Assembly: GCF_021054785.1 (NCBI RefSeq)
Contig: NZ_CP088239.1
Coordinates: forward strand, 120,001 to 152,000
Length of the DNA stretch: 32,000 bases
Reading direction: 5' to 3'
Source: Tannockella kyphosi
GTDB lineage: Bacteria; Bacillota_I; Bacilli_A; Erysipelotrichales; Coprobacillaceae
Below are positions 2,423-26,688 of this stretch, one piece after another (position 1 is the stretch's first letter; each line of letters opens with the position of its first letter). Under the pieces are notes generated by a model. It did no database searches. It had not been told where the DNA came from and saw nothing but the letters and a program-made list of their open reading frames with translations. The translations under genes were made by a program, and so were the position numbers.

Positions 2423-2467
2423 GAAATGTTTTATAAGATTTTTAGAAACTAGAAATATATTGATTTA

Positions 2468-3824: not shown

Positions 3825-3854
3825 TTGACATCCTCATACAATTGATAGATTATA
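3825..3854 (+). promoter_or_regulatory. candidate sigma70-type promoter for the second ABC module
   Basis: TTGACA at 3825-3830, then a 17-18 nt spacer to GATTAT/ATTATA (3848-3854), about 105 nt upstream of the ATG at 3960. The -10 element is weak. Confidence 0.3.
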
Positions 3855-3959
3855 AGGTTATAAATGTAAATGCTTATCATCTTATAACACCAATATGACT
3901 AAGAATACAGTATACAACAAATGAGTGATTTTATTTTTATCTAATATGGGAGGAATACT

Positions 3960-6029
3960 ATGCTGAAAATAACGAATTTAACATTTGGTTTTGGTATGAA
4001 CTGTATATTTGATACGACTTCTTTTCAAGCAGGAGCAAACCAAATTACATTAATAAAAGGAAGTAGTGGTTGTGGAAAAAGTACATTATTAAAGATACTT
4101 AATTTAGAGTATAAAGGTATTGGAACATATTTTTATAGTGATAAACTAATAGATAAGGAAACTTTTAGTGCAAACAACCTTTATTATATTCATCAAGAAT
4201 CTATTGCCTTAGATTCTTTAACTGTGATACAACATTGGAAATTTTTAACGGAAAACTATAATTCTGCAACCAAGTTAGATGAATATATAGAAAAACTAGA
4301 ATTAGTTGATTGTTTGCATCAATATCCTAAACAGTTATCAGGTGGACAACTTCAAAGAGTTATGCTTATTAATGCGTTAATTATTGATAAACCAATCTTA
4401 TTAGTTGATGAACCTACTAGTGGATTAAATGATGAATTATCTAATGTATATTTAGATATTTTAAATGAATTTAAAAAAGATCATATTATTATTGTAACTA
4501 GCCATGATGATATTTTTGATAATGTTGATGTTGTTTATACTATTCATAATAGAAAACTAATTACAAATGATAATATCAATCCTAGTATGACAAATGAAAA
4601 GAAATCTATAAAAATAAAATGGACTAACTTATTTTTAAAAGAAAGAAAACAAAAGTTTTTAAAACCAATGTTAAGAAATTTCTTATTTTCTCTTATTATT
4701 GGTATTAGTGCTTACTTACTATTTATGGATACAGAACTATCAGAATACTTCACTGTGGGAGAGGGGAACGAAAGATATACTAGTGAATTTTTATTGTACA
4801 AAGCAGTTTCTCCAGGGGTGCTTATATATGATACTGATGGATCTAGTTTTCCTTTTACCCAAGAAGAGCTGGAACAAGTAATAAATATAGAACATCTTGA
4901 ATCATTGGAATCACAATATATATTTTCCTTAACAGATATTTTCGAAGAAGTAGAACATATCAATAATGGAGAAACTATTTTAGTCGAAGAATATGCAGGG
5001 AAAGAGTTTGAGATTTATAGCAACCAAATCTTGTGGAAGTATGAAGATGAACAGAGTTATTTAACCCCAACTATTCAAAGTATTGATTCAAGCATTGACT
5101 ACCAAGAGATTACTTACCTAAGTGATGACAGAGAAGGTTTCTATATTCATCGTAATCTTCTCAATCAGACAGGATTAAGTGATGAAGTAATAATGAATGC
5201 GAGTATTAAAATAACTGTTAATATACCAGATAGTATTCTTTATGGGGTATCTTCCATAAGTTACACTAGTGGAGAGACGGATGTGCCAACTGCATTATTA
5301 CACACCACAACCTATACGATAGATGCAAAAATAATAGGTATCATCGAAGAGTTTATGCCTAATGTTGTAACTTCATCGCAAAACACATTACTGTTATCAA
5401 CGGATATTATGGAAAAATTGATTTATACTTATAATACAGAAGAAACATATACAACTTATTTTAGTAATGTGATATGGGATTATGTGGATGATCCTATGCT
5501 AGCAACAGAATCAACAACGACAACGCCCTATTATCCTAACCTTTATTTAGTATCGGTAGAATCAAGTGAGTATATGGAAGAAGTTATTAATGAAGTACAA
5601 GAAATGGGGTATATTGCTTACTGGATGTATGGTAATAATGCAACTGTGCTATCTAATTATGAATACTTATTTGTAATGGCAAAAACAATAGGAGTCATAT
5701 TAGTTATATTTGTAACTGTGCTTTGTGCAATGCAACGATTTATCAAAAATGATAAAGAGAAAAATTTTAATAACTGGCTTTCAACAATTGGTATAAGTAA
5801 TAAAAAAGAAATCTTTCAAATAAAAGGACAAAAATATATATATGATACGATCATCATAATATTACTTTCAAGTATCGTTCTCTTTTTTATCCAACTGATA
5901 GATTATAGTACAAGCTATCACTCTATATACTATGTACTAATCGGATATGTGTTTATTGTTATCATTTCAATATTCATTGAATGGGTTATACCAATGCTAT
6001 GGGAGGTTACTTATGATAGAAATAAATAA
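3960..6029 (+). CDS. MacB/FtsX-type ABC transporter, fused ATP-binding and permease protein (689 aa)
   Basis: GGGAGG SD lies 7 nt upstream of the ATG. Motifs: Walker A GSSGCGKST, signature LSGGQLQR, Walker B LLVDEPTSGLN, H-loop IVTSHD. Then TM1 (LFSLIIGISAYLLFM), a ~300-aa extracytoplasmic domain and three C-terminal TM helices. Confidence 0.85.
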   Translation: MLKITNLTFGFGMNCIFDTTSFQAGANQITLIKGSSGCGKSTLLKILNLEYKGIGTYFYSDKLIDKETFSANNLYYIHQESIALDSLTVIQHWKFLTENYNSATKLDEYIEKLELVDCLHQYPKQLSGGQLQRVMLINALIIDKPILLVDEPTSGLNDELSNVYLDILNEFKKDHIIIVTSHDDIFDNVDVVYTIHNRKLITNDNINPSMTNEKKSIKIKWTNLFLKERKQKFLKPMLRNFLFSLIIGISAYLLFMDTELSEYFTVGEGNERYTSEFLLYKAVSPGVLIYDTDGSSFPFTQEELEQVINIEHLESLESQYIFSLTDIFEEVEHINNGETILVEEYAGKEFEIYSNQILWKYEDEQSYLTPTIQSIDSSIDYQEITYLSDDREGFYIHRNLLNQTGLSDEVIMNASIKITVNIPDSILYGVSSISYTSGETDVPTALLHTTTYTIDAKIIGIIEEFMPNVVTSSQNTLLLSTDIMEKLIYTYNTEETYTTYFSNVIWDYVDDPMLATESTTTTPYYPNLYLVSVESSEYMEEVINEVQEMGYIAYWMYGNNATVLSNYEYLFVMAKTIGVILVIFVTVLCAMQRFIKNDKEKNFNNWLSTIGISNKKEIFQIKGQKYIYDTIIIILLSSIVLFFIQLIDYSTSYHSIYYVLIGYVFIVIISIFIEWVIPMLWEVTYDRNK

Positions 6030-7737
6030 TCTAACTTTACAATATGACAAAGTATTATTAGATAAACAACGTTTAGAAATAAAAGAAAAAAGTATCACGC
6101 TTATACATGGACCAAGTGGGTGTGGTAAAACTACATTGCTCTATTATCTTGGCTTATTCTATGATTTAGAAAATGATTATATTTATCATGGAAAGAATAT
6201 AAGCAAAGAAAGTGAAGAATTTAAAGCGAATCTTAGAAAGAAGGAATTTGGTTTTTTGTTTCAAAATTATATTCTATTTGATGAATATTCCATTTATGAA
6301 AATTTTGAATACTTTGCAAGATTAACGAATAGCTCAATTAGTGAAGATAAGGCAAGAGTACTATTACAACAAGTACGGGTAGATGAAGATATTCATCGTA
6401 ACTTATATACTTTATCAGGTGGTCAAAAACAAAGAGTAGCATTAGCTTGTTTACTTATAAAAGATCCTAAGGTTTTATTGTTGGATGAACCAACAAGTGC
6501 GCTAGATAAAGAAAATAGTGTAATTATCTTAGAAATACTAGAACAATTAAAAAAAGATAAAACAATAGTTATTGTAAGCCATGATCAAATGATTAAAGAG
6601 TATAGTGATGAAATAATCTGTTTTGAAAACAAAAAATTAGTGGTACAAAAATACACAAAGAAAACAAATAGTTCTAATGAAATACCTATAAAAACAACGT
6701 TAAATAAGTCATTTTATACTTTTTATAATAAAAAGTATAAATCAAAAAAGAAGAATAATTTTAAAATAATTTGCTTTGCAATTGCCATGTTATTATTAAC
6801 TAGTGTGGGTGTATTCAATATAACGAATAGTTATATTGATTCATTAAAACAAGATAATGTTTCATCCTCTAATTTGGCACAAGTTTATATACAAGAAACT
6901 ATGGATGTAATGGATTATGATATTTATAAAAGTTATCCATATTATGAAGTATCTATTGAACTATTAGGAAATATGTATCCAGTTTTACCAATCTATCCAG
7001 AAACAAATCAAACATCATCTAATTGGATGACAATTGATTATATTCCAGAACTAGAGTTTTCAATTAGTTTTGATTTGTTTTATCTAATTGAATATGTGTA
7101 TGTTCCAACCACATCTATATCTACAAACTTATATAGTATCTCTGATTCTAGTGGCTTTAACTATGCATATACAAATATACTATTAAATGGATATCAGTAT
7201 GGCTATACTGATTCAACTTATTTTGTTACTTTGCCATATGATTATATAGAATCTAGTCTGTCAGATAACGAAAAAGGAATGACTTTATTCTTTGATGATT
7301 ATGATTCCTTAACTTTCTTTATAGAAGAAAATCAAGATAAAGTAGTAGATATATCATTTAATCAATTAGATGAGGTTATTGAAACTATTCAACTTTTTTC
7401 AACTTTAAAATATGTATTTGTTTTAATGACTTTGGTATTAGGTGAAGCTGCCTTGTTCTATTTATATAAAACATATATTAAAAATAGATATGAAGAATTA
7501 GCTTTATTGAAAGCAATAGGTTTATCAAATAAAGAAGTAAACTATTTGTTATTAGAAGAACTACAGTTACCCATTCTTATTAGTTTTATAACTATTAGTA
7601 TCGTTCAATTATTAATGAGAGATATTTATGCTGTATTATTCTTGTTTTTTATTAGTATCGGATTAGAAATAATGATTAGTTTGATATTACATTATTATGT
7701 AAAAAAAATAAATCCAGTAAAAGTTTTCAGGACATAA
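6013..7737 (+). CDS. MacB/FtsX-type ABC transporter, fused ATP-binding and permease protein (574 aa from ATG 6013)
   Basis: GGAGG at 6002-6006 precedes the ATG at 6013 (MIEINNLTLQYDKVLL, matching the N-terminus MIKLTNIHIEFDKVLL of the 635..2422 paralog). Motifs: Walker A GPSGCGKTT, signature LSGGQKQR, Walker B LLLDEPTSALD. C-terminal FtsX-like segment LLKAIGLSNKEV. 17-nt overlap with the upstream gene. Confidence 0.85.
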   Translation: MIEINNLTLQYDKVLLDKQRLEIKEKSITLIHGPSGCGKTTLLYYLGLFYDLENDYIYHGKNISKESEEFKANLRKKEFGFLFQNYILFDEYSIYENFEYFARLTNSSISEDKARVLLQQVRVDEDIHRNLYTLSGGQKQRVALACLLIKDPKVLLLDEPTSALDKENSVIILEILEQLKKDKTIVIVSHDQMIKEYSDEIICFENKKLVVQKYTKKTNSSNEIPIKTTLNKSFYTFYNKKYKSKKKNNFKIICFAIAMLLLTSVGVFNITNSYIDSLKQDNVSSSNLAQVYIQETMDVMDYDIYKSYPYYEVSIELLGNMYPVLPIYPETNQTSSNWMTIDYIPELEFSISFDLFYLIEYVYVPTTSISTNLYSISDSSGFNYAYTNILLNGYQYGYTDSTYFVTLPYDYIESSLSDNEKGMTLFFDDYDSLTFFIEENQDKVVDISFNQLDEVIETIQLFSTLKYVFVLMTLVLGEAALFYLYKTYIKNRYEELALLKAIGLSNKEVNYLLLEELQLPILISFITISIVQLLMRDIYAVLFLFFISIGLEIMISLILHYYVKKINPVKVFRT

Positions 7738-7891
7738 AAGTGTATGTTATTTTATAAAAAATTCTAAACAAGAAGTAATGTAATCATGGTAAGAGGAGGG
7801 ATAATGAATTACAATTTTGGAATCATAAGTGAATTAAGTTTGTTTATTCTATTTAAGAAAGGAATCCATAACAGGATAAAGGAAAAGAATA

Positions 7892-12908: not shown

Positions 12909-13596
12909 ATGGAAACAGAAAGAAATGAATTACTTAATCAACTGCTTAGTGAAGAAAATATGATAGAAGCATATAAGCAAGTCAAACGAAATAGAGGAGC
13001 TAGTGGAATAGATGGTATGGAAGTAACTGAGTTAAAGGAATACCTAGAAGAACACGGCGAAGAAATTAAAGAAGAGATAAGGACAAGGAGATATAAACCT
13101 AGTCCGGTAAGAAGGGTAGAAATACCAAAAGAGAATGGTGGAGTAAGATTACTTGGAATACCAACAGTAAAAGATAGAATGGTACAACAAATGATAGTGC
13201 AAGTATTAACACCAATCTATGAACCGATATTTAGTGAACATAGCTATGGGTTCAGACCGGGTAGAAACTGTGAAATGGCAATCATAAAAGTATTAGAGCA
13301 CATGAATGAAGGATTGCATTGGATAGTAGATATTGACTTAGAGAAATTCTTTGATAATGTTCACCATGATAAACTAATTCGACTAGTGAGTCAACAGGTA
13401 AAAGATGGTGATGTAATATCCCTAATTAGAAAATTCCTAAGAAGTGGAATCATGATTGATGACGAATATAAAGAATCAACAATCGGAACGCCACAGGGCG
13501 GAAATCTTAGTCCATTATTATCAAATATTATGCTTGATGTGTTGGATAAGGAATTAGAGGCAAGAGGACTTAATTTCGTAAGATATGCAGATGATG
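12909..13596 (+). CDS. group II intron 1 reverse transcriptase/maturase, 5' part (interrupted after the YADD motif)
   Basis: RT motifs GIPTVKDRMVQQ, YGFRPGRN, DIDLEKFFDNVHHD, GTPQGGNLSPLLSNIML, VRYADD. The listed tail GAPRKCA* (to 13619) is read-through into the inserted intron. Confidence 0.85.
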
Positions 13597-15463
13597 GTGC
13601 GCCACGAAAGTGTGCGTGAGTAACAAGAATTACTCAAGTATAACTAAGCTATACAAATGATGGTGGAAGACCCACCGAAATCGCCATGCAGGTGGAGGTT
13701 TCAAACTACCTTAAGGTGCTGTAGACAAAAGCTATGGTATTGAGCGTTAAGGAAAAGGCAGTGTAAAACTGTCAAGTATGTGTTATGGAGATGAGAAACC
13801 AAGCGAATCACTGATGAAAACATCGAAAGCGTATAGATTCCATCAAAACCAGGGGGTTGTCGTTAACCTGGGATAAGTGTAGAGGAAACCTGTTTACTGA
13901 CTACACGGTGGGCGGTGTAAAGGTGACATGAACATAACATAGGCGTTTGTATGGAACGTGGGAACCCACGGGCTGATGATAAGGGAGTACTACAAGTGGA
14001 AGAACCATAAGTAGAGAGTACCAATGCAGTCATGGGGACAGATTGAATTGTAGTAGTGAAGAAGCTTCTGTAATGGAAGTGGAGCGAAGGGTTCAAGTCA
14101 TTTAGTTTTGAGAATGAGTCAACTTTGAAAGGAGGAGGAACTTATGCAAGAAACCAAACCGTTTAATATTTCAAAACAAGCATTTGTGAAAGCATTTGAA
14201 CTAGTGAAAGCAAACAGAGGAACATATGGGATAGATAATATAACTATTGAAATGTTCGAAGCAGACTACAAGAATAACATGTATAAGCTTTGGAATAGAA
14301 TGTCATCAGGAACATATTTCCCAAAACCAGTAAAAGCAGTGGATATACCAAAGAAAAGTGGTGGGACAAGAACACTTGGAATACCAACAGTGGAAGATAG
14401 GATAGCACAAATGGTTGTAAAGTTATACTTCGAACCAAATGTAGAGAAAATCTTCTATGAAAATTCATATGGGTATCGACCAAATAAGTCTGCAATACAA
14501 GCTGTAGGGGTAACTAGGGAAAGGTGTTGGAGAAGAGACTGGGTATTAGAATTTGATATCAAAGGACTGTTTGACAACATAAGACATGACTATCTAATGG
14601 AAATGGTAGCAAGACATACCAAAGATGAATGGATAAAACTATACATACAAAGATGGCTTACAACACCATTCCAAAAAGAAGATGGAACAAAAATAGAAAG
14701 AAGATCTGGAACACCACAGGGTGGGGTAATCAGTCCAGTACTAGCGAATCTATTTTTGCACTATACTTTTGATGAGTATATGACAAAACAATTTCCTAAT
14801 ATTCCATGGGTGAGATATGCAGACGATGGAGTAACGCATTGTGTATCACTTAAACAAGCGCAGTACCTATTAAAGAAACTAGAAGAAAGATTTCAACTAC
14901 TAGGACTAGAATTAAACCTAGAGAAAACGAAAATAGTATATTGTAAAGATGATGACAGGAAAGAAGAGTATCCTAACGTATCATTTGATTTTCTAGGATA
15001 TACATTTCGAGCTAGAGGGAGTAAGAACAAGTATGGAAAATATTTTGTAAACTTCCTACCAGCTATAAGTGATAAAGCGAAGAAAGCAATTCGCAAAGAA
15101 GTAAGAAGTTGGAAAATACAATTTAAAGTAGATAAAAGTTTAGAAGATATAGCAAATATGTTCAATAAGAAAATCCAAGGTTGGATTAATTATTATGGAC
15201 ATTTCTATAAATCTGAAATGTACGATGTATTGAGATATATTAATAGACGTTTAATTTACTGGGTGCGAAGAAAGTACAAAAGGCGAAACTCAAACAGAAG
15301 AGCTGAAAGATGGTTAGGTGGTGTGGCAAGAAGAGACACCAGACTATTTGCACACTGGAAACTAGGAATATTACCGGCGATAAATGATGGGAGCCGTATG
15401 AGCTGAGAGGTTCACGTACGGTTCTGAGAGAGACTTAGGGGGAGGTTCCCTAGGTCTACTCAC
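13597..15463 (+). mobile_element. group II intron 2 (inner intron, inserted in the YADD codons of the intron 1 RT gene); junctions uncertain by 1 nt
   Basis: It starts GTGCGCCACGAAAGTGTGCG at 13597, directly after GAT GAT G of YADD. Domain V is GAGCCGTATGAG...CACGTACGGTTC (15395-15428) and overlaps the IEP stop. A domain VI-like helix follows and the intron ends ...CTACTCAC before TTGCAAATATTGGTAGG, which resumes the outer RT frame (LQILVGS). Confidence 0.8.
14144..15406 (+). CDS. group II intron 2 reverse transcriptase/maturase (420 aa, no obvious endonuclease domain)
   Basis: GGAGGAGG SD. RT motifs GIPTVEDRIAQ, YGYRPNKS, FDIKGLFDNIRHD, GTPQGGVISPVLANLFL, VRYADDGVTHC. Maturase X motif QGWINYYGHFY. 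The ORF ends inside domain V. Confidence 0.9.
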   Translation: MQETKPFNISKQAFVKAFELVKANRGTYGIDNITIEMFEADYKNNMYKLWNRMSSGTYFPKPVKAVDIPKKSGGTRTLGIPTVEDRIAQMVVKLYFEPNVEKIFYENSYGYRPNKSAIQAVGVTRERCWRRDWVLEFDIKGLFDNIRHDYLMEMVARHTKDEWIKLYIQRWLTTPFQKEDGTKIERRSGTPQGGVISPVLANLFLHYTFDEYMTKQFPNIPWVRYADDGVTHCVSLKQAQYLLKKLEERFQLLGLELNLEKTKIVYCKDDDRKEEYPNVSFDFLGYTFRARGSKNKYGKYFVNFLPAISDKAKKAIRKEVRSWKIQFKVDKSLEDIANMFNKKIQGWINYYGHFYKSEMYDVLRYINRRLIYWVRRKYKRRNSNRRAERWLGGVARRDTRLFAHWKLGILPAINDGSRMS

Positions 15464-16066
15464 TTGCAAATATTGGTAGGAAGTCAAAAAGCAGCAAATA
15501 GAGTAATAGAGAATGTGAGTAGGTACATAGAAAAGAAACTAGGATTAAAAGTAAATATGACAAAAAGCAAAGTCAACAAACCAGAGGGTACAAAATACCT
15601 AGGGTTTGGATTTTACTATGATAAACTTCAAAAGACCTATAAAGCGAAACCACATAAACTTTCTGTAGAAAAACTGAAAAGAAAACTGAAGCAACTTACA
15701 AGCCGGAATTGGGGAGTGAGCATGGACTACAGACTACTAAAGATAAAGCAATTGATAGTAGGATGGGTCAACTACTTTAGAATAGCGAGTTTTAAGAAAG
15801 TGTGCAAACAAATAGATGCACATACACGGTTTAGACTTAGAATGTGCATATGGAAACGATGGAAAAGAATAGGTACAAAATACAGAGCACTAATAAAACT
15901 AGGAGTAAACAAATATAAAGCATGGGAATGGGCGAATAGCAGAAAAGCATACGCACGAGTTGCCATGTCATATATCATGTGTAGAACGGTAACGAACGAT
16001 AGACTAAAGAAAAGAGGTCTAGTATCACTACTAGACCAGTATCAGTTAAAACATATTTTAGTATAA
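15464..16066 (+). CDS. group II intron 1 reverse transcriptase/maturase, 3' part (thumb/maturase X domain)
   Basis: LQILVGSQKAANRVIENVSRYIEKKLGLKVNMTKSKV continues the consensus that follows YADD in intron RTs. Maturase motif VGWVNYFRIA. It is in frame with 12909..13595/6 if 1868 nt are removed. Confidence 0.8.
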   Translation: MQILVGSQKAANRVIENVSRYIEKKLGLKVNMTKSKVNKPEGTKYLGFGFYYDKLQKTYKAKPHKLSVEKLKRKLKQLTSRNWGVSMDYRLLKIKQLIVGWVNYFRIASFKKVCKQIDAHTRFRLRMCIWKRWKRIGTKYRALIKLGVNKYKAWEWANSRKAYARVAMSYIMCRTVTNDRLKKRGLVSLLDQYQLKHILV

Positions 16067-16278: not shown

Positions 16279-17910
16279 GGCGCTTTAAAATCTAGCGGGG
16301 TTTAGCGTAAAAAAGCTTTAAAAAAGAGCGGGGATAATTTTCCCCGTTCTATTTTTAAAGCCAATGCGAACATAAATTACAGTTTTTTTATTTTTTCGAT
16401 TTTTTGTAGGGGCCCCTTGGTGATCCTACTCTTTTTATTCTGGTAGAATGTTCACTTATAGTATATGTTTCGTATAAGTTTTGAGAGTAGATGAACTTAT
16501 TTCGGGCTCTTTGGAAATTACTTAGCCCATTCCCGTTGCTTATGATCTTTTTGATATAGTTGTTTTTCCCTTCTATAGGTCCATTGGATAATCTTCGATT
16601 ATCTATCCAGTGAAAAGAATTTAATATCTCTACTTTCCAATTTTTTAAAGTGCTTGCACAGTCTATCATTTCTTGGATGTTGGATAGAAGCATCTTCTTG
16701 ATTAAAGAATCTAATTCTTGTTCTTTCTTTTCTCTGGAAACAAATGTAGTTGAGTCATCATCTTGAAAAGCAATAAACTCTTCTTTTATCTTATATGCGT
16801 TATGTAAAACATCGCTAATATTTAATAGCTCTCTTAGTAGTGCTGTTTTTGTGGTTGTATACTTTAGTAAGTAATCATAGTATAAATTCTCAAAGTCTAG
16901 AGTGTCCTTATTTTTTAATAGTATGTAATATCTACTTTTGAGCAGTTTATATTCTAATTTGTCTTTATCTTCACTAAAGGAACGCATAATACGTTTTCTC
17001 ACACTGTTCAAAGAATCAGTTACTTTTTTTGTTGCATGGAACGGATCAATAGAAATAACTGCATCGGGAAAGAAAATATGTGCTATATCAGCATAATTTT
17101 GATACATATCAATGATAATATATTTTACTTTCTCTCTTTCTTTTAAAGGAATACTAAAAAAATAGTTGGTTAAGTCTTCGTTCCATCTAGATTCTACTAT
17201 ATCAATAATATACTTTTTACGAAAATCCATGATCATAAAAGCGTATTTTTTTTCAGTATGTCGGTTGAAATAAAATTCATCCCAACAGAGTATATCGGTT
17301 AATTGTTTTCTAGGTATTTGAACATGTTTGTCAAAAATATCAACAACTGTACCAACAGAAACATGATACTTAGAAGCAATACTAGAATAGGTAGCTGTAT
17401 AAGGCTTCAAGTCATTTAATATATTAATGATAGTAGTAGGAGTTAGTGTTTTTCTACTGTTTCCAAAAGGATTAGGTTCAATAAAAGTTTTCTTACAGTG
17501 ATTGCATTTATAACGACGCTGACGATAGAATATAGTAGTGTCACAATGAATAATAACTTTATGTTTTAATTCTCTAGTTTTATAATCTTTTACAGTGCTT
17601 GTAATGGAACCACAGTGAGGACAGACTTGTTTTCTTTGTTTGAAAGTTACTAGGAAATCAGAATGATTTGATTGAACAACAGAATCAATGAATTGTATAT
17701 CTTGTGCTTTTAAATCTAAAAGATTAATGATAAAATCGTACATAGAATCTCCTTCCTTTTAATTTTGTTCGCAAACTAATTATAACAGGAGATTCTTTTT
17801 TTTGCCTAAAATCACCCCGCACTAGATTTAAAGCGCTAAATTTAAGTGAAAGAAAAGACCCCGACTTATATTTAAAGCCTAGGTCCTTCCCCGCGATAAT
17901 TTAATATACC
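16279..17910 (-). mobile_element. ISL3-family insertion sequence
   Basis: Terminal motif GGCGCTTTAAAATCTAGCGGGG (16279-16300) versus the reverse complement of 17889-17910 (GGTATATTAAATTATCGCGGGG). A better inner copy sits at 17815-17837, and each end carries three copies of a GCTTTAAA-N-CGGGG motif. Identical GTTTTTTT(G) abuts both ends (16271-16279 and 17911-17919), consistent with an 8-bp target duplication. Confidence 0.7.
16388..17743 (-). CDS. ISL3-family transposase (451 aa)
   Basis: N-terminal zinc-finger pairs CPHCGS...YKCNHCKK, a central DDE region (CWDEFYF..., IIDMYQNY) and C-terminal SNGPIEGKNNYIKKI, characteristic of ISL3 transposases. AGGAAGGAG SD. Confidence 0.85.
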   Translation of the reverse strand: MYDFIINLLDLKAQDIQFIDSVVQSNHSDFLVTFKQRKQVCPHCGSITSTVKDYKTRELKHKVIIHCDTTIFYRQRRYKCNHCKKTFIEPNPFGNSRKTLTPTTIINILNDLKPYTATYSSIASKYHVSVGTVVDIFDKHVQIPRKQLTDILCWDEFYFNRHTEKKYAFMIMDFRKKYIIDIVESRWNEDLTNYFFSIPLKEREKVKYIIIDMYQNYADIAHIFFPDAVISIDPFHATKKVTDSLNSVRKRIMRSFSEDKDKLEYKLLKSRYYILLKNKDTLDFENLYYDYLLKYTTTKTALLRELLNISDVLHNAYKIKEEFIAFQDDDSTTFVSREKKEQELDSLIKKMLLSNIQEMIDCASTLKNWKVEILNSFHWIDNRRLSNGPIEGKNNYIKKIISNGNGLSNFQRARNKFIYSQNLYETYTISEHSTRIKRVGSPRGPYKKSKK

Positions 17911-18051: not shown

Positions 18052-19587
18052 CTATGATTTTTCAGTAATTTTTATGTTTTCAGGCAACTCTGTTGCCCAA
18101 GGCATAATATTTTCTAGATCTTTCTCATCATGTAAGTCAATATTAGGCAAGATATTTAATATATATTCTAAGTATGCTTGTGGATTTAGTTTGTTTAGTT
18201 TTGCACTTTCTACAATACTGTAGTAACAACTAGATGCACGTGCTCCATGAGGAGATGTAGAGAACATCCAATTTTTCCTACCAATTGTGAATGGACGTAT
18301 CGCTCTTTCTAGGCTGTTATTTGATAGTTCAATTCTACCGTCATCTAAATAAGTACGTAGTTTACTTTCTTGATTTACACAATACGTAATGGCTTGTTGT
18401 AATTTCTTGTTTACAATCTTTCCTTGATTTGCTTCATGGATTCTTTCCATCATTTCATAAAAGATTGGTTTTGCCTTCGTTTGTCGTAAACTAGTTATTT
18501 CTAGATAGGACATATCTTTTGTTTCTTTTTCTATATGAAATAGTTGGTTCATTAATATAACTATTTGATTCGAAAAAGAATCACTTATATCAGTACCTTT
18601 TGGGGCACTATCTAGTACTTCTATAAATTTTCTTCGGGCATGAGCCATACATCCTGCTTGTGTTACATCTTCTAGTTTATCATATGCTTGATAGCCATCA
18701 GATTGTACAATCTGATGATATCCTTCTAGATGTTTCTTTGCACAGTCATGACCTCTAGTTGGTTCATAGTGAAATAGTACTAGTTGCTTTTCTTCACTGC
18801 GACCACTCTTATATGCCCACATATAGGATTTTGTAGAAGCTGCTATCCCTTGTTCACGTAATACTTGTACCGTTGTTTCATCTGCTCCAATGTATTCCAT
18901 TTGTAGTAAACAACGATGCATATATGCTTGAACATCCTTTAGGTAGTAATCATAAAGTTTCACTAACCAGTTGGACATTGTTTGTCTAGTAATGAGTAAG
19001 TTTGTCCTCTTATAATCCATCTCTTGACGATATAGTGGTAAAGATAAACAAAACTTATTATAGATAATCGTACTAGCCACACTAGCAGATAAGAAACTTT
19101 TTGGTAGTAAGGCAATTGGTGCTTTTCCTTTTACAAAGTTTGCTTTTTCTTCATTGCATGCATCACATGTATAAACATATTGAACATGTTCAATGACTTT
19201 ATAGCTAGCAGGAATATATACTAATTCTTTACGTATATTTTCACTTACTTTACGTAATGGAGCATGACATAGATTACATGTTTTCTCTTCTACGTCATAA
19301 ACAATACGTTCTACTGGGAATAGTGATAAGTCTTGTTCTCTTTTCCCTTTTTTCTTTTTACGTTTATAAGTAATCTCTTCTAGTTCTGGTTCTACTTTTA
19401 TTGGTGTTTGTTCTATTTCTACTTCATCAAATAAAGATAACTGTTCAGGTAAGTCTGTCTTTTCAGATTTCTTTCCATACATATTTTTTTGAAGAAGTTT
19501 TATCTGTTGTTGATACCAATCTAGTTGTTCTTCTAGGGTAGAAATATGATCAATTAATTGTTCTTTTGATAGCTTATTTAAGTCCAT
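18052..19587 (-). CDS. tnpC: IS66-family transposase TnpC (511 aa)
   Basis: N-terminal coiled coil, zinc finger CNLCHAPL...CDACNEE, DDE region GADETTVQVL / VQSDGYQAYD, and hallmark SNNSLERAIRPFTIGRKNWMFS. Confidence 0.9.
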   Translation of the reverse strand: MDLNKLSKEQLIDHISTLEEQLDWYQQQIKLLQKNMYGKKSEKTDLPEQLSLFDEVEIEQTPIKVEPELEEITYKRKKKKGKREQDLSLFPVERIVYDVEEKTCNLCHAPLRKVSENIRKELVYIPASYKVIEHVQYVYTCDACNEEKANFVKGKAPIALLPKSFLSASVASTIIYNKFCLSLPLYRQEMDYKRTNLLITRQTMSNWLVKLYDYYLKDVQAYMHRCLLQMEYIGADETTVQVLREQGIAASTKSYMWAYKSGRSEEKQLVLFHYEPTRGHDCAKKHLEGYHQIVQSDGYQAYDKLEDVTQAGCMAHARRKFIEVLDSAPKGTDISDSFSNQIVILMNQLFHIEKETKDMSYLEITSLRQTKAKPIFYEMMERIHEANQGKIVNKKLQQAITYCVNQESKLRTYLDDGRIELSNNSLERAIRPFTIGRKNWMFSTSPHGARASSCYYSIVESAKLNKLNPQAYLEYILNILPNIDLHDEKDLENIMPWATELPENIKITEKS

Positions 19588-19637
19588 TTTCTTCCCTCGC
19601 TTTTCCTATATATTATACCAAAAAAAGGGTTATTTTT

Positions 19638-19997
19638 CTATAAAATAAGCCCTGTTTTTTGACTATTTGATAAGAATTTTGATTCCATATCTAAGCCTTG
19701 TAATAACCAATTTAATTGTACACTTGTAATTGTTTTCACCTGTTTAGTTTCATCTACTACATACTGAAATCTGCCTTGCTCTAGTCGCTTTAGAAACAAC
19801 CAAAACCCATTGTTTTCATAATAGAGGATCTTTATTCTTGTTCTGTTTTTATTGATGAACAAGAATAAAGAATGATCTAATACATCTAATTCAAAGGATT
19901 GATGGACCAGTAAAGCTAGTCCATCAATCGATTTCCTCATATCTACGTAATTGGTAGATAGATAAATATGTTTCACTTCTTCTGTATTAAGTATCAT
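19638..19997 (-). CDS. tnpB: IS66 Orf2-like accessory protein TnpB (119 aa)
   Basis: Motif VDMRKSIDGLALLV is typical of IS66 Orf2. The start overlaps the tnpA stop (ATGA-type overlap, 19994-19997). Confidence 0.85.
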   Translation of the reverse strand: MILNTEEVKHIYLSTNYVDMRKSIDGLALLVHQSFELDVLDHSLFLFINKNRTRIKILYYENNGFWLFLKRLEQGRFQYVVDETKQVKTITSVQLNWLLQGLDMESKFLSNSQKTGLIL

Positions 19998-20290
19998 GCA
20001 TCTACTCCAAGTAATGAACGCAATACATGAATATCACCTTTAATAGAAACACCATTTATTTCCATACGTATATCTTGATTCGTAGTAACAAGAACCGGTT
20101 CAAACACAACTGGTGTTACAGTTTCTACTATTTTCTTTTTTTTATACTTTGTGAGAAAGGCACGTTTTTGATAAAAAGTACTTTCCCCAATATCATGTTG
20201 CTTACAAAAGTCTACAAGTGATAAAGTGGTTGATTCAAACTCCTTGAGTATTTTTATCCACTTTTCATCACTTAATTTATGTCCTCGCAT
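19994..20290 (-). CDS. tnpA: IS66 Orf1-like HTH accessory protein TnpA (98 aa from ATG 20290)
   Basis: GGAGG lies 8 nt upstream of the ATG at 20290 (MRGHKLSDEKWIKILKEF...). The listed ORF start at 20323 has no SD. Position and size fit IS66 orf1. Confidence 0.75.
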   Translation of the reverse strand: MRGHKLSDEKWIKILKEFESTTLSLVDFCKQHDIGESTFYQKRAFLTKYKKKKIVETVTPVVFEPVLVTTNQDIRMEINGVSIKGDIHVLRSLLGVDA

Positions 20291-20491
20291 AAAATCACCT
20301 CCTACATGAACCAAGTATAGCATTGTAGCAGGTGACTAGATAGTGCCGTTATATTTGACGCTTACATATAAATTAAGAAAAGAAGGGAAATCAATAGGGA
20401 AACTTAGTAAAGAGTACAAATTGGTTATTAATAATTTAAAGTATGTGATTCGGTTAATAGAAAGATACAAAATAGAAATATCAAAAAGAAA

Positions 20492-20783: not shown

Positions 20784-20812
20784 TTGATTTAACGATGTAT
20801 CTGTGCTATATT
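20784..20812 (+). promoter_or_regulatory. sigma70-type promoter of the toxIN-like locus
   Basis: TTGATT (20784-20789), 17-nt spacer, TATATT (20807-20812) preceded by TGc (extended -10). Confidence 0.6.
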
Positions 20813-20837
20813 TTAGTTGTCAAGAGAATTAAAAATT

Positions 20838-20895
20838 GGAGAACCATAGCCTGAGTTGGATCTATTAAATCGGAGAACCATAGCCTGAGTTGGAT
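20838..20895 (+). ncRNA. candidate type III antitoxin RNA: tandem direct repeats, 34-nt period
   Basis: GGAGAACCATAGCCTGAGTTGGAT occurs twice without mismatch (20838-20861, 20872-20895). Flanking sequence (AGTTG..TTAAA upstream, GCAATAGAC downstream) looks like partial units. It sits between a promoter and a terminator, immediately upstream of a ToxN-family ORF. Confidence 0.65.
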
Positions 20896-20904
20896 GCAAT
20901 AGAC

Positions 20905-20943
20905 TAAAAAACAGGGAAATACATTAAGTATCCCTGTTTTTTG
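20905..20943 (+). terminator. intrinsic terminator between the repeats and the toxin gene
   Basis: AAAAAACAGGGA, loop AATACATTAAGTA, TCCCTGTTTTTT: a 7-bp GC-containing stem extended by A/T runs, followed by a T-run. Confidence 0.7.
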
Positions 20944-20967
20944 TTTAAAGAAAGAGAGGTAAAATTC

Positions 20968-22707
20968 ATGAGGTTTTATAAAGTGAATACTAGGTATTTA
21001 GAACATATACATAAATATGATAACAATATTATTTCAACAAAAGAAATGATTGGAATACCCGTTCGTTTAAGAGGGAAAATATATTTTCTACCTGTGTGTA
21101 CTCTTTCTAAAAATGATTTTGATAATGATGGAAATTTGCGTAAAACGAATCCTGCAATATTAAGATTGATTGATTTAAAATCAAACAAGGCTATTGGTAA
21201 GTGTTTGTTTTCTAATATGTTACCAGTTCCATATAATGAATTAGAGATTGTAATATTTGATGAACTAACAGGTAATAGAATTTTATATGAAAAACAATTA
21301 AATTATTTACAGAAAAATTATAGTAGAATTAATAAGGCAGCAAACAGAATATATAGTCAAAAAGAAAAAGGCTACAAACATACATATTTAAATAAAACAG
21401 TAAACTTTAAAAAAATAGAAAAATATGCTTTGGAGTGGGAATTAGAGAAGTATGGCAAACACTACAATAGATTTCCTGACTCTAACTTCTTTTTAACCAA
21501 CCCACAGGCAGATGGTGTAGGTGAATATTATTTGATGAATAAACATCATAAAGTTGCTAGAATACTTTATAATCATCAGTCAAATGATATCCAAGTAGTG
21601 GAACTATTAGAAAAGGAATATGCTCCATTAGAGTGTATAGTTAAAGAAGGCATCCTAGATAAAGATGTTTCAAGTTGGTTCCGTAATAGAGGAATACCAT
21701 CATGGAGAGATGGACTAGATGACTTTTTAGATAATTTAGGTATATCAGATAAAGATATATTATTAAGTAAAGCATTTGGGCTGTCTTTAACTGATCAGTA
21801 TTGGTTAAATCCACTGTCGATGCCAATGGAATGGGATGATATCAATTTTTTTGATAATGATTTCTATACACAAAATTATAAAGAAGCAATATTTCAAAAC
21901 AAGATACAAGATGCTTATAAAGTTAATCTTTTTACCCCTAATAATACTTCTGATGGTATGTTAAAAAAAGTATGGATTTGTGAGAATGGTGAACGTTATT
22001 TGTTAAAAGGATCGTATAATGAAAAGGGATTAGAGCCATTTAATGAGGTTTTAGCTTCAATGATCAGTGACGTTCTTGGACTTGAGTATGTATATTATTG
22101 CGTGGAAACATGCTATGGGAGTATGGTCTCTAAATGTGCGTGTTTTATTGATGGTGATACAGAACTGATATCTGCTTATTCAGTACTAAAAAATGCTGGA
22201 ATTGGTATGGTTAGCGAACTTGATTCAGTAGCTGTATATAGCCAATATAAGCAAATATTACTCAAACAAGGGATAGTTTCACCTGGTAGGTCGCTTGTAA
22301 AGATGTTTTTACTAGATTATATTATCCTGAATGAAGATCGTCATTTAGGTAATTTTGGCATTATCAGAGATGTGGAAACACTAGAGTGGAGATGTGTAGC
22401 ACCAAACTTCGATAGTGGGCAGTCAATGAATTCACAAAAAAAAGCATATGAGATGGACTTTGATCATGCAAAAGGATGTTTCTTTCATGATAAAAATATT
22501 GATTTTGAAAACATATTGTCTTTTATAAAGGAAGATATTGACTTTGAAATAACTTTTGGGAAACTGTATGACGTTGTCAAAGAGTGGAAAAAACTTTTAA
22601 AGGATTATCAAGCTGTGTCTGTTTTAAACGAGGATATTATTGATACTCTTGTAAAGGGATTGCAAATACGTATAGAAATGCTAGAAAACAAGTTAAATGA
22701 AAAATAA
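20968..22707 (+). CDS. ToxN/AbiQ-family endoribonuclease domain fused to a HipA-like Ser/Thr kinase domain (579 aa)
   Basis: AGAGAGG SD precedes ATG 20968. The N-terminal ~165 aa resemble ToxN/AbiQ (MRFYKVNTRYLEHIHKYDNNI, IGIPVRLRGKIYFLPV, LYEKQLNYLQKNYSRINKAANRIY). The C-terminal part has HipA-like motifs (GLSLTDQYWLNP, YLLKGSYNEKGLEPFNEVLAS, LNEDRHLGNFGII, VAPNFDSGQS). Confidence 0.8.
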   Translation: MRFYKVNTRYLEHIHKYDNNIISTKEMIGIPVRLRGKIYFLPVCTLSKNDFDNDGNLRKTNPAILRLIDLKSNKAIGKCLFSNMLPVPYNELEIVIFDELTGNRILYEKQLNYLQKNYSRINKAANRIYSQKEKGYKHTYLNKTVNFKKIEKYALEWELEKYGKHYNRFPDSNFFLTNPQADGVGEYYLMNKHHKVARILYNHQSNDIQVVELLEKEYAPLECIVKEGILDKDVSSWFRNRGIPSWRDGLDDFLDNLGISDKDILLSKAFGLSLTDQYWLNPLSMPMEWDDINFFDNDFYTQNYKEAIFQNKIQDAYKVNLFTPNNTSDGMLKKVWICENGERYLLKGSYNEKGLEPFNEVLASMISDVLGLEYVYYCVETCYGSMVSKCACFIDGDTELISAYSVLKNAGIGMVSELDSVAVYSQYKQILLKQGIVSPGRSLVKMFLLDYIILNEDRHLGNFGIIRDVETLEWRCVAPNFDSGQSMNSQKKAYEMDFDHAKGCFFHDKNIDFENILSFIKEDIDFEITFGKLYDVVKEWKKLLKDYQAVSVLNEDIIDTLVKGLQIRIEMLENKLNEK

Positions 22708-22715
22708 ATCAGATA

Positions 22716-22747
22716 AAAACAACCAGATTCTTTTTGGTTGTTTTTAT
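22716..22747 (+). terminator. intrinsic terminator of the ToxN-HipA gene
   Basis: AAAAACAACCA, loop GATTCTTT, TGGTTGTTTTT, followed by a T-run, 9 nt after the stop codon. Confidence 0.75.
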
Positions 22748-23187: not shown

Positions 23188-23247
23188 TAAGTAAACACCC
23201 ACAAATATATAGCAAGTGTGGGCTTTTGGTGGAAGGTGGTGATACAT

Positions 23248-23790
23248 TTGTTAAAAACATATGAAGAATGTATAGCAGAGTTTGGTTCAAATCATTATCT
23301 TGATAAAGCAATTGAAAGTGGTCGGTTATTTAAAATAGAAAAAGGTATATATTCTGATGAGCAGTTACCTTCACAATTATCAGTTGTTGTTTTTAAGTAT
23401 CCAAATACTATAATGACCATGGAATCAGCTTTTTATTATCATGGATTGACTGATAGTATTCCAGATGAGTATGTGCTATGCACAGAAAGAAATGGAACTA
23501 AAATTAAGGATATAAGAATAAAGCAAATTTTTTGTCAGAAAAAATTATTTTTAATTGGAAAAAGCAAAATGGAATATCAGGGCATAAAATTAAACATTTA
23601 TGATAGAGAAAGAATGTTGATTGAGTTAGTCAGAAACAGAGAGAAACTACCCTATGATTATTATAAAGAAATCATCAGAAGCTATCGTGATAAGCTCTTT
23701 GATTTGGATATAGAAAAAATGCAAGAATACATTAGGCAGTTTCCAGGAAGCAAAACTATTAATGAAGTGATTGCTAGGGAGGTTTTTTAG
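23248..23790 (+). CDS. abiEi: AbiEi/AbiGi-family antitoxin-like protein (start uncertain: TTG 23248 or GTG 23218-23242)
   Basis: GAAGGTGG lies upstream of TTG 23248. Motifs GRLFKIEKGIYS and ESAFYYHGLTD are typical of the AbiEi_4/AbiGi N-terminal wHTH family. It overlaps the downstream AbiEii-like gene by 1 nt (TAGTG). Confidence 0.7.
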   Translation: MLKTYEECIAEFGSNHYLDKAIESGRLFKIEKGIYSDEQLPSQLSVVVFKYPNTIMTMESAFYYHGLTDSIPDEYVLCTERNGTKIKDIRIKQIFCQKKLFLIGKSKMEYQGIKLNIYDRERMLIELVRNREKLPYDYYKEIIRSYRDKLFDLDIEKMQEYIRQFPGSKTINEVIAREVF

Positions 23791-24593
23791 TGAATATAAA
23801 AGAGCACATAAATAGAATATACGCAGAAGGGTACAGTGAAGCAAACGCAGAGGCAAAACTCTGTCAGGATATTATTCTTGAGTTACTATCTAAAAGCTCC
23901 TTAAATCAAAATGTCACCATAAAGGGCGGTGTGGTAATGAGAAGTATATCGGATAATGTGAGAAGAGCAACACAGGATATAGATATTGACTTTATCCGAT
24001 ATTCGTTAGAAGAAAATTCAATTAGAACATTTTTGGATAAACTTAATGAGGCAGGGTCAGGAGAAATAACACTATCTATAGTAGGAAATATAGAAGAATT
24101 GAAACAACAGGATTATCACGGGAAACGAATCCATGTAGAAATAACAGATACTACAGGAATAAAATTAATGAGCAAAATAGATCTTGGAGTACATAAAAGG
24201 TTGGAAATCACACAAGAAGAATATTGCTTTGATATTGGTTTTAATAAAGAAGGAGCAAGTCTCTTAATCAATTCCAAAGAACAGATTCTAACAGAAAAAC
24301 TTCGTTCTATTTTAAGATTTGGAAGTTATTCTACAAGATATAAAGATATTTATGATATCTATTATCTACTAGGAAGCATTGATAATGAAAAGCTAGAACA
24401 TTGCTTGGATCTGTACATATACCAAGATAACAAAATGAGAGAAAACAATAAAGAGGATATTTATAAAAGAGTTTATGAGACATTAACAGATACTAGCTAT
24501 TTAAAAAAACTAAACACATCGAAAAGAAACTGGCTAGATGTATCAAATAACGAAGTTGTTTCAGGTATTATACAGGCATTGCAGGAACTGTGA
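23790..24593 (+). CDS. abiEii: AbiEii/AbiGii-family nucleotidyltransferase toxin (267 aa)
   Basis: IKGGVVMRSISDNVRRATQDIDIDF matches the GG...R.T.DID nucleotidyltransferase motif of AbiEii/AbiGii. GTG start coupled to the upstream gene. Confidence 0.75.
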   Translation: MNIKEHINRIYAEGYSEANAEAKLCQDIILELLSKSSLNQNVTIKGGVVMRSISDNVRRATQDIDIDFIRYSLEENSIRTFLDKLNEAGSGEITLSIVGNIEELKQQDYHGKRIHVEITDTTGIKLMSKIDLGVHKRLEITQEEYCFDIGFNKEGASLLINSKEQILTEKLRSILRFGSYSTRYKDIYDIYYLLGSIDNEKLEHCLDLYIYQDNKMRENNKEDIYKRVYETLTDTSYLKKLNTSKRNWLDVSNNEVVSGIIQALQEL

Positions 24594-25206: not shown

Positions 25207-26688
25207 ATGGCAAGGGAAACAACAGAGATAATAAAAGGAAATTATTATTATGAAAGGAAATATAGTAGTATGAAAGAGGTAATGAGGGATGTAGATAAAG
25301 TTGATTTTACTAGTATGATAGAAAATAAAAAAATTGAATTTAAAGTAGAATTAAATAAAAACAAACCTATTGGATGGTTAAAAACAGTAGTAGGATATGC
25401 TAATGATAGAGGTGGAATTATATACATAGGTGTTAGTGATGAGGGGTATCCTAAAGGTTTTTATAGAAAAGAAACAGATGAAATTCAGTTATATATGGTG
25501 GATATGATGAAAAGAAGAATTGATCCTCCTATTGAATATGATATTGAACTAATAAAAATAAAGGAACGATTTATTTTAAAGTTGATAATAGAGGAAAGTA
25601 AGATAAACGTAGTTAGTTATGTTGATAGAAAAAATGATATAACTGAAATTTATATTAGAAAACATGGCTCTACAACAAAGGCAAACTTATACGATATGGC
25701 TGAATTATTTCTACGTAAAAACCCTATTCCTTTTGATGAAAGAGTGAGTGAAGAGCAGTTTGAAAACCATACTTTTCATAGTTTAAATGAGAAATATAAG
25801 GAGCTTAATAATACAATGGTAGATTTAAGTCAAAAAAAGATGCAAGCACTAGGACTAGTTAATGAAGATGGCCTTTTAACAAATGCAGGATTACTATTTG
25901 TTGATAAAAGAAAAGAAGAATTCCCACTTATTCATATGAGAAAATGGCCTGGATTTGATAAGGGGAGTGATGAAGTGATTGATAGAAAAGAATTTAGAGG
26001 GAATCTTATTGATCAATTAAATAATGCAACACTGTTTATAAGAAATAACATAAAGACAGGATTTGTAAAGTTGCCAATAGGTAGGGTAGATAAAGAATCA
26101 TATCCAATGAGGGCAGTAGTAGAAGCATTATGTAATGCTATAGCTCATAGAGACTATCTAATTGGAGGTACACAGATAGATATTGATATTTATCAAGATA
26201 GGATGGTAATCACATCACCTGGAGATTTCTTACCAATAGGTAATGCTTCTGAATATGTTTTAGAAGAAATCCCATCAAAACGAAGAAATGAAACAGTCTG
26301 TAATATATTATCTGTATGTAAATTGATGGAAAAATCGGGGAGTGGATTTGAAAAGATTGTAAAGGAATATAATAAATTCGATAAAAAATATGCACCCAGG
26401 ATTATATCAAGGCAAGATTATTTTATGATTGTATTAAAGGATGTTTTGTATGATGATAAGATTATTTCAACTCAACACACAATATCGATAGAAGAAATTA
26501 AACTTCCAAAAAACCAAAAACTTATATATGATGTAATTTGCGAAAATCCTGGACTTAGGGTTCCTGATATATCTTCAAAGAGTGGACTTAAAAAATCCAG
26601 TGTGGATAATGCGATTAGAGAATTGAAAAACAAAGAAATTATCAAATTTGTTGGAACAAGCAAAGGTGGAGGATATTACAAATTATAA
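25207..26688 (+). CDS. AlbA_2 (Schlafen-like) / HATPase_c_4 / C-terminal wHTH protein (493 aa)
   Basis: The N-terminal segment IEFKVEL...GGIIYIGVSDEG is typical of AlbA_2/Schlafen divergent-AAA DNA/RNA-binding domains. The central segment AVVEALCNAIAHRDY...ITSPGDF...SKRRNETVCNILSVCKLMEKSGSGFEKI is typical of HATPase_c_4. The C-terminal segment IYDVICENPGLRVPDISSKSGLKKSSVDNAIRELKNKEII is wHTH-like. Confidence 0.75.
   Translation: MARETTEIIKGNYYYERKYSSMKEVMRDVDKVDFTSMIENKKIEFKVELNKNKPIGWLKTVVGYANDRGGIIYIGVSDEGYPKGFYRKETDEIQLYMVDMMKRRIDPPIEYDIELIKIKERFILKLIIEESKINVVSYVDRKNDITEIYIRKHGSTTKANLYDMAELFLRKNPIPFDERVSEEQFENHTFHSLNEKYKELNNTMVDLSQKKMQALGLVNEDGLLTNAGLLFVDKRKEEFPLIHMRKWPGFDKGSDEVIDRKEFRGNLIDQLNNATLFIRNNIKTGFVKLPIGRVDKESYPMRAVVEALCNAIAHRDYLIGGTQIDIDIYQDRMVITSPGDFLPIGNASEYVLEEIPSKRRNETVCNILSVCKLMEKSGSGFEKIVKEYNKFDKKYAPRIISRQDYFMIVLKDVLYDDKIISTQHTISIEEIKLPKNQKLIYDVICENPGLRVPDISSKSGLKKSSVDNAIRELKNKEIIKFVGTSKGGGYYKL

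Follow-up and report, generated by a model that had tools for sequence, protein, structure and literature searches.

The AbiQ/antiQ system of the Lactococcus lactis plasmid pSRQ900 is laid out as a promoter, tandem repeats of about 35 nucleotides (nt), a terminator and a toxin gene, in that order, and its toxin, AbiQ, is a stand-alone ribonuclease (RNase) of 172 amino acids (aa) with an essential Ser51. The ToxIN systems of Pectobacterium atrosepticum and Bacillus thuringiensis have a toxin of the same fold, an upstream repeat RNA, a terminator that controls the ratio of RNA to protein, and a role in abortive infection (PMC5086642, PMC13064643). The HipA-family kinases, which include those of HipBA and HipBST as well as YjjJ/HipH and HipL, occur in ten described Hip gene organisations, none of which has a ToxN/AbiQ domain or an RNA (PMC8262856). 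Here, we analysed a 32,000-nt stretch of DNA from Tannockella kyphosi (contig NZ_CP088239.1, positions 120,001 to 152,000), hereafter the window. In it, a leader with two antiQ-like repeats precedes a gene for a 579-aa protein, in which a domain of the AbiQ/ToxN fold is followed by a HipA/CtkA-like Ser/Thr kinase. The original prediction, made from the letters of this DNA, had proposed a type III toxin-antitoxin (TA) layout and a ToxN-HipA fusion; both stand and both recur, the fusion in about 60 clusters of homologous proteins. In the reading that we slightly favour, the RNA would be an antitoxin that acts through an AbiQ-like domain without RNase activity, and the kinase would be the effector.

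The module shares the order of its elements with AbiQ/antiQ, together with a homologous repeat core, GGAGUAUCCAAGCCAUAGUUGG against GGAGAACCAUAGCCUGAGUUGG. It differs from AbiQ/antiQ in the catalytic region, where the residue at the Ser51 position is Cys in the window protein and most often Asp in its relatives, and where the segment equivalent to Lys33 of ToxN is deleted. Furthermore, a kinase of 400 aa is appended, and there are two full repeats compared with the 2.8 of antiQ. Likeness to ToxIN lies in the toxin fold, the upstream repeat RNA and the terminator. However, the active site of ToxN from P. atrosepticum (ToxN_Pa), composed of Tyr29, Lys33, Thr52, Ser53 and Lys55 (PMC5086642), is not kept here, the ToxI repeats (36 nt, 5.5 copies) are unrelated in sequence, and ToxN carries no fused effector. 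Judged from its sequence, the module is a variant of the type III TA systems that has the layout and the RNA of AbiQ/antiQ and lacks the conserved RNase site, one of the features that define the family.

With the HipA-family kinases, the C-terminal part shares the HipA/CtkA kinase fold and the catalytic motifs. The genes of YjjJ, which has an N-terminal helix-turn-helix (HTH) domain, and of HipL are, like that of the fusion, monocistronic, and their products have an additional domain by which the kinase could be regulated in cis (PMC8262856). Unlike the Hip systems, the fusion has no HipB, HipS or HTH partner; its extra domain has an RNase fold, is putatively RNA-binding and is paired with a repeat RNA. 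A HipA-like kinase is also the toxic effector of an anti-phage defence system (PADLOC PDC-M66 / DS-6), in which it needs to be neutralised by a DUF3037 protein (PMC12548924); the neutraliser there is a protein, whereas here we propose an RNA that acts via a fused receptor domain. The closest solved structure for the kinase core is CtkA (JHP0940) of Helicobacter pylori, with which the NxDRHxGN and APxFDxG motifs align, but CtkA, which is secreted and pro-inflammatory, has no link to an RNA or a TA system, and the identity is only about 20%. The searchable literature gave no description of a ToxN/AbiQ-kinase fusion, in agreement with the original prediction, which knew of none. Both Pfam domains are already on record for homologues in database annotation, and an identical protein of T. 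kyphosi (Erysipelotrichales) is named 'type III toxin-antitoxin system ToxN/AbiQ family toxin' by NCBI.

The leader and the two-part protein

The elements of the module, with their coordinates in the window and their strand, are the following.

20784-20812, +: sigma-70-type promoter; -35 TTGATT (20784-20789), 17-nt spacer, extended -10 TGcTATATT (-10 at 20807-20812); 9/12 match with TG
20833-20861, +: antiQ-like repeat unit 1; A-rich lead AAATT and 22-nt core GGAGAACCATAGCCTGAGTTGG at 20838-20859
20867-20895, +: antiQ-like repeat unit 2; AAATC and core at 20872-20893
20906-20948, +: intrinsic terminator or attenuator in the gap between the RNA and the open reading frame (ORF); stem AAAAAACAGGGA / TCCCTGTTTTTT, then a T-run
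20954-20959, +: Shine-Dalgarno sequence (SD) GAGAGG, 8 nt before the ATG; read from the sequence
20968-21462, +: AbiQ/ToxN-fold domain, residues 1-165; profile, PDB-sequence and fold matches, canonical catalytic residues absent; proposed RNA receptor
21463-21498, +: interdomain linker, residues 166-177, YNRFPDSNFFLT; predicted local distance difference test (pLDDT) below 50, conserved in sequence
21499-22704, +: complete HipA/CtkA-like Ser/Thr kinase, residues 178-579; N-subdomain-like part 178-335, then the core
22715-22746, +: probable terminator 3' of the ORF, AAAAACAACCA ... TGGTTGTTTTT; read from the sequence, unreported by the terminator scanner (loop limit 8 nt)

The promoter, repeats, stem-loop, SD and 579-codon ORF of the original prediction were all recovered at the same positions. 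Promoter-like sites are not enriched across the region (10 found, 15.7 expected), so the support for this promoter comes from its position and its conservation; a TATAAT-like -10 element is seen by eye, unscored, upstream of the first core in homologous leaders as well. The direct repeats have a period of 34 nt; 24 nt of each (20838-20861 and 20872-20895) agree without a mismatch, and the match is 29 nt long if one mismatch is allowed. At up to three mismatches, the 22-nt core occurs twice in the window, against an expectation of 0.00 (100 shuffles). The terminator hairpin has perfect 12-nt arms (20906-20917 and 20931-20942) and accounts for most of the structure predicted for the leader (-29.7 kcal/mol, z = -3.0); it was not reported by the terminator scanner because its 13-nt loop exceeds the 8-nt limit. 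Nearly all homologous leaders have an ACAG(A/G)G...C(T/C)CTGT stem and a T-run at the equivalent place, the stem sequence being different in L081, L082 and L090. Flanks resembling partial repeat units had also been proposed. In the window this is weak, consisting only of TTTAGTTGTCA at about 20813-20823, which resembles the 3' half of a unit, while a degenerate third copy is clear in the L003/L004 lineage. An Rfam scan of the leader gave chance-level matches only and no matching family.

The repeat upstream of abiQ on pSRQ900 is GGAGTATCCAAGCCATAGTTGGAATTGATAAAATT, that of a Listeria plasmid is GGAGTATCCTAGCCAYAGTAGGAATTGACAAAATAT, and the window unit is GGAGAACCATAGCCTGAGTTGGATCTATTAAATC. The window core is identical to L. 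lactis antiQ at 16 of 22 positions in an ungapped comparison; the window repeats are homologues of the pSRQ900 antiQ and of the Listeria repeat related to it, and the RNA is specifically antiQ-type. Unfused relatives of the N-terminal domain were collected by an exhaustive HMMER search. The nearest of these ToxN/AbiQ proteins, with 31-33% identity to the domain, have three repeats of 36-37 nt upstream, with a hairpin at the equivalent place in each repeat. The stems covary in the AbiQ-clade RNAs (UCCAA/UUGGA, UCCUA/UAGGA, UCCAC/GUGGA, UCCGC/GCGGA and UCUCA/UGAGA). Their counterpart in the fusion-type core would be CCA(n)A/UUGG, a putative stem in which the first variable position is bulged out and the second belongs to the loop. 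A MAFFT alignment of the RNA units was not used for pair counting, since the stems fell in different registers. In one unfused relative, the ToxI-like array is itself preceded by a second array (L154:300-396), of four copies with a 21-nt period (TTTTGCTCAAAATTACATAC...).

The ORF runs from the ATG at 20968 through 579 codons to the stop at 22705-22707, on the + strand. The ORF finder also offers a TTG at 20941 as the start, but this codon falls within the terminator and the start in the homologues is the ATG, so it was discarded. Residues 1-156 cover the whole Pfam profile ToxN_toxin (PF13958) with E = 4.4e-18 and 66 bits, for a cut-off of 25, and the domain matches PADLOC AbiQ with E = 5.5e-21. 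Its best match among PDB sequences is AbiQ (4glk, 2.2e-9), and ToxN of B. thuringiensis (4ato) is matched at 1.9e-7. An AlphaFold2 model built on 36 homologues, with a mean pLDDT of 80.8 and a disordered linker (166-177), served as the Foldseek query. The N-terminal part of the model retrieved ToxN/AbiQ structures at TMt values of 0.73-0.80 (4glk 0.80, 2xd0 0.77; also 4ato and 7d8o). The assignment of residues 1 to about 165 to ToxN/AbiQ, which had been made by eye, is upheld by the profiles and by the predicted fold, the profile search having been named in the original prediction as a check.

The C-terminal part has a Gly-rich loop (T327-K334), a catalytic loop (N455-x-D457-R-H-x-x-N462) and a Mg loop (P479-x-F-D482). 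Its Foldseek matches are CtkA (4.5e-9), HipA (1.9e-7) and HipT (9e-6), and CtkA is also matched among PDB sequences (5.6e-4). Full-length HipA is alignable to the model over about 450-490 columns; residues 178-579 therefore represent a whole HipA-type kinase, more than the core alone. Residues 326-563 match the PADLOC PDC-M03A models (1.6e-13), PDC-M03 being an unvalidated candidate defence system. The proposal of a HipA-like C-terminus is thus borne out by the kinase fold and motifs, but the Pfam profile HipA_C (PF07804) scores only 20 bits, below its gathering threshold of 30.5. Scores of 36-43 bits are obtained by related kinases from the family, and database records list HipA_C for many of the fusion homologues. 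Standalone kinase homologues of about 390-440 aa, which occur in many Bacilli and Clostridia, start at query residue 181-189 or thereabouts; several exceed the HipA_C cut-off, and one (P0115) has an N-terminal HTH. As had been noted for a HipB-like HTH gene, no HipB, HipS, HipN or HipR gene and no fused HTH adjoins the ORF in the window or in the homologous fusion loci.

The two domains are connected by a GKHYNRFPD motif, composed of the linker and the preceding G-K-H (163-165). With a mean pairwise identity of 68%, it is among the best-conserved stretches of the protein, and H165, N167, P170 and D171 are invariant in it. The motif may be a functional hinge or a docking peptide.

Recurrence of the fusion and of its RNA

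About 60 protein clusters of 540-623 aa share the fusion architecture at 41-55% identity. Their hosts are Beduini, Coprobacillus, Thomasclavelia, unnamed Erysipelotrichales and unnamed gut Bacillota, and the single ORF is kept in 62 clusters of at least 540 aa, from isolates and from metagenome-assembled genomes. Fusion loci were fetched by the protein alone, from genomes (L001-L004) and from assemblies (L081-L092), and 12 of them had enough upstream DNA. All 12, like the window, have two tandem copies of GGAGRACCAnAGCCTnAGTTGG followed by a T-run hairpin, an SD and the ATG; in a thirteenth locus, L082, which is cut by the contig end, one core is seen. The repeats are thus found upstream wherever upstream DNA suffices, and the homologue search suggested with the original prediction comes out in favour of a recurring fusion. 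Over 32 units from 16 distinct leaders, 19 of the 22 core positions are invariant. Ten of these leaders were found via the core pattern itself, and the invariance is equal in the protein-retrieved loci. The repeat period is 27, 34, 35 or 38 nt, depending on the leader. The 27-nt period belongs to one sub-lineage (L083, L084 and L130), in which the unit consists of the 22-nt core and the spacer AAATC. The units of ToxI (36 nt) and antiQ (35 nt) are longer, and this sub-lineage shows that the spacer is dispensable. The flanking genes change from locus to locus, as expected of a mobile single module.

Loci of unfused kinases provide the comparison that shows which half of the protein the RNA accompanies. 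Neither upstream tandem repeats nor the core were found in any of 71 such loci, none had a ToxN domain near the kinase, and no neighbour family was common to more than three of the 71, so that no conserved protein partner emerged. The core and the repeats, present in all fusion loci, therefore track the AbiQ-like domain and not the kinase. A megablast search of the locus against plasmids gave no match. Scanning viral contigs for the RNA core gave 0 matches, and thus no sign of phage-borne mimics in the scanned viral collection. Three other long proteins with ToxN domains were seen, P0155, P0236 and P0198, of which the first combines ToxN with a YqaJ-like nuclease domain (419 aa) and the second with a zincin-like MPTase-PolyVal (379 aa), while the third has ToxN in two stretches (589 aa). 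Additional effector fusions are one possible explanation, errors of gene calling another.

When metagenome contigs were scanned for the core, 59 loci were obtained. In 18 of them the core is followed by the fusion gene, which is fragmented in some cases on low-coverage contigs, and three (L111, L131 and L141) were rejected as chance matches in GC-rich DNA. Most of the remaining loci have no toxin gene; what they keep is a promoter, one or two cores together with a degenerate copy, and a terminator. A few loci are truncated at the end of the contig. About 36 contigs from human-gut metagenomes, among L095-L153 (for example L095, L101, L117 and L144), carry such an orphan antiQ-like RNA gene. In L095 the core, at 4313 in the core-forward orientation, lies at 7834-7855 on the minus strand of the contig as stored. 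The orphan loci are syntenic on both flanks with the full system of L003 (L003:3882-5716), which occupies the same chromosomal site in L003 and L004, and they lack exactly the stretch of the toxin ORF, at about 3938-5753 of L003. Orphan RNAs of similar appearance occur in at least two other contexts (L119/L129 and L108). No toxin-only locus, in which the fusion gene lacks repeats, was found. The occurrence of RNA-only loci and the absence of toxin-only ones is the asymmetry expected of an antitoxin in a TA relationship.

The RNase site and the proposed role of the RNA

In AbiQ, Ser51Leu is the sole substitution that abolishes RNase activity, while Ser51Thr is tolerated (PMC5086642). Residues at the active-site positions were counted in 97 unfused relatives and in the 62 fusions. 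The catalytic Ser/Thr is located two residues past the Pro of a conserved Y-F-x-P-x strand, which makes the alignment robust at this place.

Position of AbiQ Ser51 / ToxN Thr52: Ser/Thr in 90 of 97 unfused relatives and 6 of 62 fusions; Asp in 31 of 62 fusions; Cys in the window protein
Position of ToxN Ser53: Ser/Thr in 92 of 97 and 31 of 62
Position of ToxN Lys33: Arg/Lys in 88 of 97; segment deleted in 62 of 62 fusions
Position of ToxN Lys55: Lys in 62 of 97; Lys/Arg in 3 of 62 fusions

All active-site positions except that of Tyr29 are strongly conserved in the unfused relatives. In the fusions, four of the five ToxN_Pa positions are variable or fall in the deleted segment, and the fifth, Ser53, has Ser/Thr in only half of the proteins. 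The residues found at the AbiQ Ser51 position include Asp, Leu, Val, Tyr and Cys. The conserved endoribonuclease active site that characterises toxins of the ToxIN/AbiQ family is, at the sequence level, not seen in the fusions. The AbiQ-like domain has lost the canonical catalytic residues, which suggests that RNase activity is lost as well.

The domain as a whole is not decaying and remains constrained. Its mean pairwise identity is 47%, compared with 56-61% for the parts of the kinase. Among its basic and polar residues, R33, R66, R120 and Q131 never vary, and K78, K123, R127 and K132 hardly do; several of them are located on the long helix equivalent to H3 of ToxN. In ToxN, H3 is the main element in contact with ToxI (PMC5086642). 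The kinase motifs are kept almost without exception, the catalytic loop in 62 of 62 fusions, the Mg loop in 61 and the Gly-rich loop in 62. The former catalytic loop of the AbiQ-like domain (residues 44-51; 21097-21120) is acidic and rich in Ser/Thr in most fusions, as in D-S-I-S-Q-T-D-Y-D, and Asp50 is invariant. Such an acidic loop might have become a different active site or might mimic a phosphate; it might also serve the fused kinase as phospho-acceptor or pseudo-substrate.

We give somewhat better than even chances to a reading in which the RNA is an antitoxin, or gate, that acts via the pseudo-RNase domain, and in which the kinase is the effector, as a toxin or an abortive-infection (Abi) module. 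By analogy with the arrangement of ToxIN, the constitutive promoter would yield a short RNA of about 130 nt that has two antiQ-like units and ends at the intrinsic terminator. Occasional read-through would give the 579-aa protein, and as read-through is only occasional, the RNA would be in excess of the protein. The N-terminal domain, with its RNase site lost and its basic RNA-contact helix kept, would be the receptor of the repeat RNA. Binding of the RNA would hold the fused, catalytically competent kinase inactive and so neutralise it, and a single RNA molecule, with its two cores, might bridge a pair of protomers. The trigger would be a failure to replenish the labile RNA, for example during phage-induced shut-off of host transcription, which is the condition under which ToxIN is released (PMC13064643). 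The released kinase would then phosphorylate a target that the cell cannot do without; HipA and HipT suggest, by analogy, an aminoacyl-tRNA synthetase or some other part of the translation machinery. The toxicity of the kinase would lead to growth arrest or abortive infection.

Several observations weigh against this proposal. Asp50 and the other family-specific invariants could build a different active site, and the window protein retains Thr45 at the position of ToxN Ser53. A-rich AAAU(C) motifs, which precede 27 of the 32 cores and resemble the cleavage sites AA/AU and A/AAA, would fit continued processing of the RNA. Minimum free energy folding of single units was weak and inconsistent, and was not used as evidence. 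The unfused kinase homologues have no conserved partner, which suggests that the kinase may not be intrinsically toxic. Finally, the orphan RNAs come mostly from one chromosomal site and thus represent few independent events.

The first three of these points would also suit a two-headed toxin, in which the AbiQ-like domain has remained an endoribonuclease, though with a remodelled site. It would cut the repeat RNA in the A-rich spacers and be inhibited by that RNA as ToxN and AbiQ are, and the kinase, as a second effector or as a sensor, would be released together with it. The full ToxN/AbiQ fold is retained in the fusions, and the AbiQ site tolerates change, given that Ser51Leu is the only inactivating point mutation; the six fusions with Ser/Thr at the Ser51 position fit as well. 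Such a toxin would, however, need a rebuilt active site, given the variable or deleted ToxN_Pa positions and the range of residues at a place where Leu inactivates AbiQ, and no AAA tract directly precedes the core in L090 and L081. We regard the two-headed toxin as unlikely, although it is the strongest competitor. The original prediction had offered two readings, this one and a ToxN domain co-opted as an RNA-binding switch; the switch is favoured by the active site, which is conserved in the unfused relatives and unconserved in the fusions.

In another explanation, the protein would bind the leader of its own mRNA via the AbiQ-like domain and autoregulate termination or translation, the kinase being a non-toxic signalling enzyme. 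The position of the repeats in the 5' leader, directly before the terminator and the SD, agrees with this, as does the occurrence of partnerless unfused kinases, to be expected if cells can bear this kinase with no antitoxin present. On the other hand, antiQ, to which the RNA is homologous, is a trans-acting antitoxin, the RNA-only alleles retain promoter, cores and terminator though no gene is left to regulate, and the flanking genes, which vary by locus and are of defence or mobile type in the window, are typical of TA and defence modules. This cis-regulatory role is improbable in our judgement. An artefact, that is, an ORF made by chance or by assembly from adjacent genes and repeats that match by chance, might be suspected from the broken genes on some low-coverage metagenome contigs (L099, L104, L121, L127 and L139), but it can be dismissed, since the single ORF and its conserved linker are kept in the 62 clusters and the core, with its chance expectation of 0.00 in the window, recurs in every homologous locus.

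Returning to the reading of an RNA-gated kinase, a more specific form of it, to which we give about even odds, is that the module is the first type III-style TA/Abi system with a kinase effector. The pseudo-RNase would then be kept solely as a receptor of antiQ-type RNA, and the two-unit RNA would gate the kinase, possibly by tethering protomers and so controlling trans-autophosphorylation.

Surroundings and implications

The module is located in a mobile, defence-rich stretch of the window, with AbiEii, Schlafen/AlbA_2, IS66 and ISL3 genes. The other features are the following.

635-7737, +: three large ORFs with ABC-transporter ATPase domains, two also with FtsX-like permease (MacB-type exporters); unrelated to the module
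12909-13619, 14144-15406 and 15464-16066, +: ORFs of a group II intron reverse transcriptase/maturase, split into two or three parts; two RVT_1 and two GIIM domains
16388-17743, -: ISL3 transposase
18052-20323, -: complete IS66 unit (tnpA-like, TnpB, DDE transposase), ending about 460 nt before the module promoter
23218-24593, +: AbiEii gene and upstream partner ORF, overlapping by one base; the second gene is the AbiEii nucleotidyltransferase toxin (Pfam 1.3e-20)
25207-26688, +: Schlafen AlbA_2, HATPase_c_4 and winged-HTH protein of 493 aa, with a defence- or regulator-like architecture

The partner ORF of AbiEii (190 aa) has no Pfam match and occupies the position of the AbiEi antitoxin; the pair is a second TA/Abi module directly downstream of the first. 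The pieces of the group II intron suggest a duplicated or disrupted intron.

The characterised type III toxins that have been reviewed (ToxN/AbiQ, CptN and AbiV) are all RNases, and a kinase controlled by a repeat RNA would widen the range of RNA antitoxins. If true, it would show how, through the fusion of domains, an unrelated toxin can come under the control of an RNA antitoxin. With the fusion, the number of gene organisations in the HipA kinase families would rise to eleven; the control of their monocistronic members is still an open question (PMC8262856). The AbiQ-like domain, with its RNA-binding fold kept and its catalysis apparently lost, is a natural separation of functions that could help to dissect RNA recognition by ToxN/AbiQ. 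As the 22-nt core is nearly invariant though the proteins share only 41-55% identity, the interface between RNA and protein is directly testable. Furthermore, the RNA-only alleles of the gut permit a test of the 'anti-addiction' role of orphan antitoxins.

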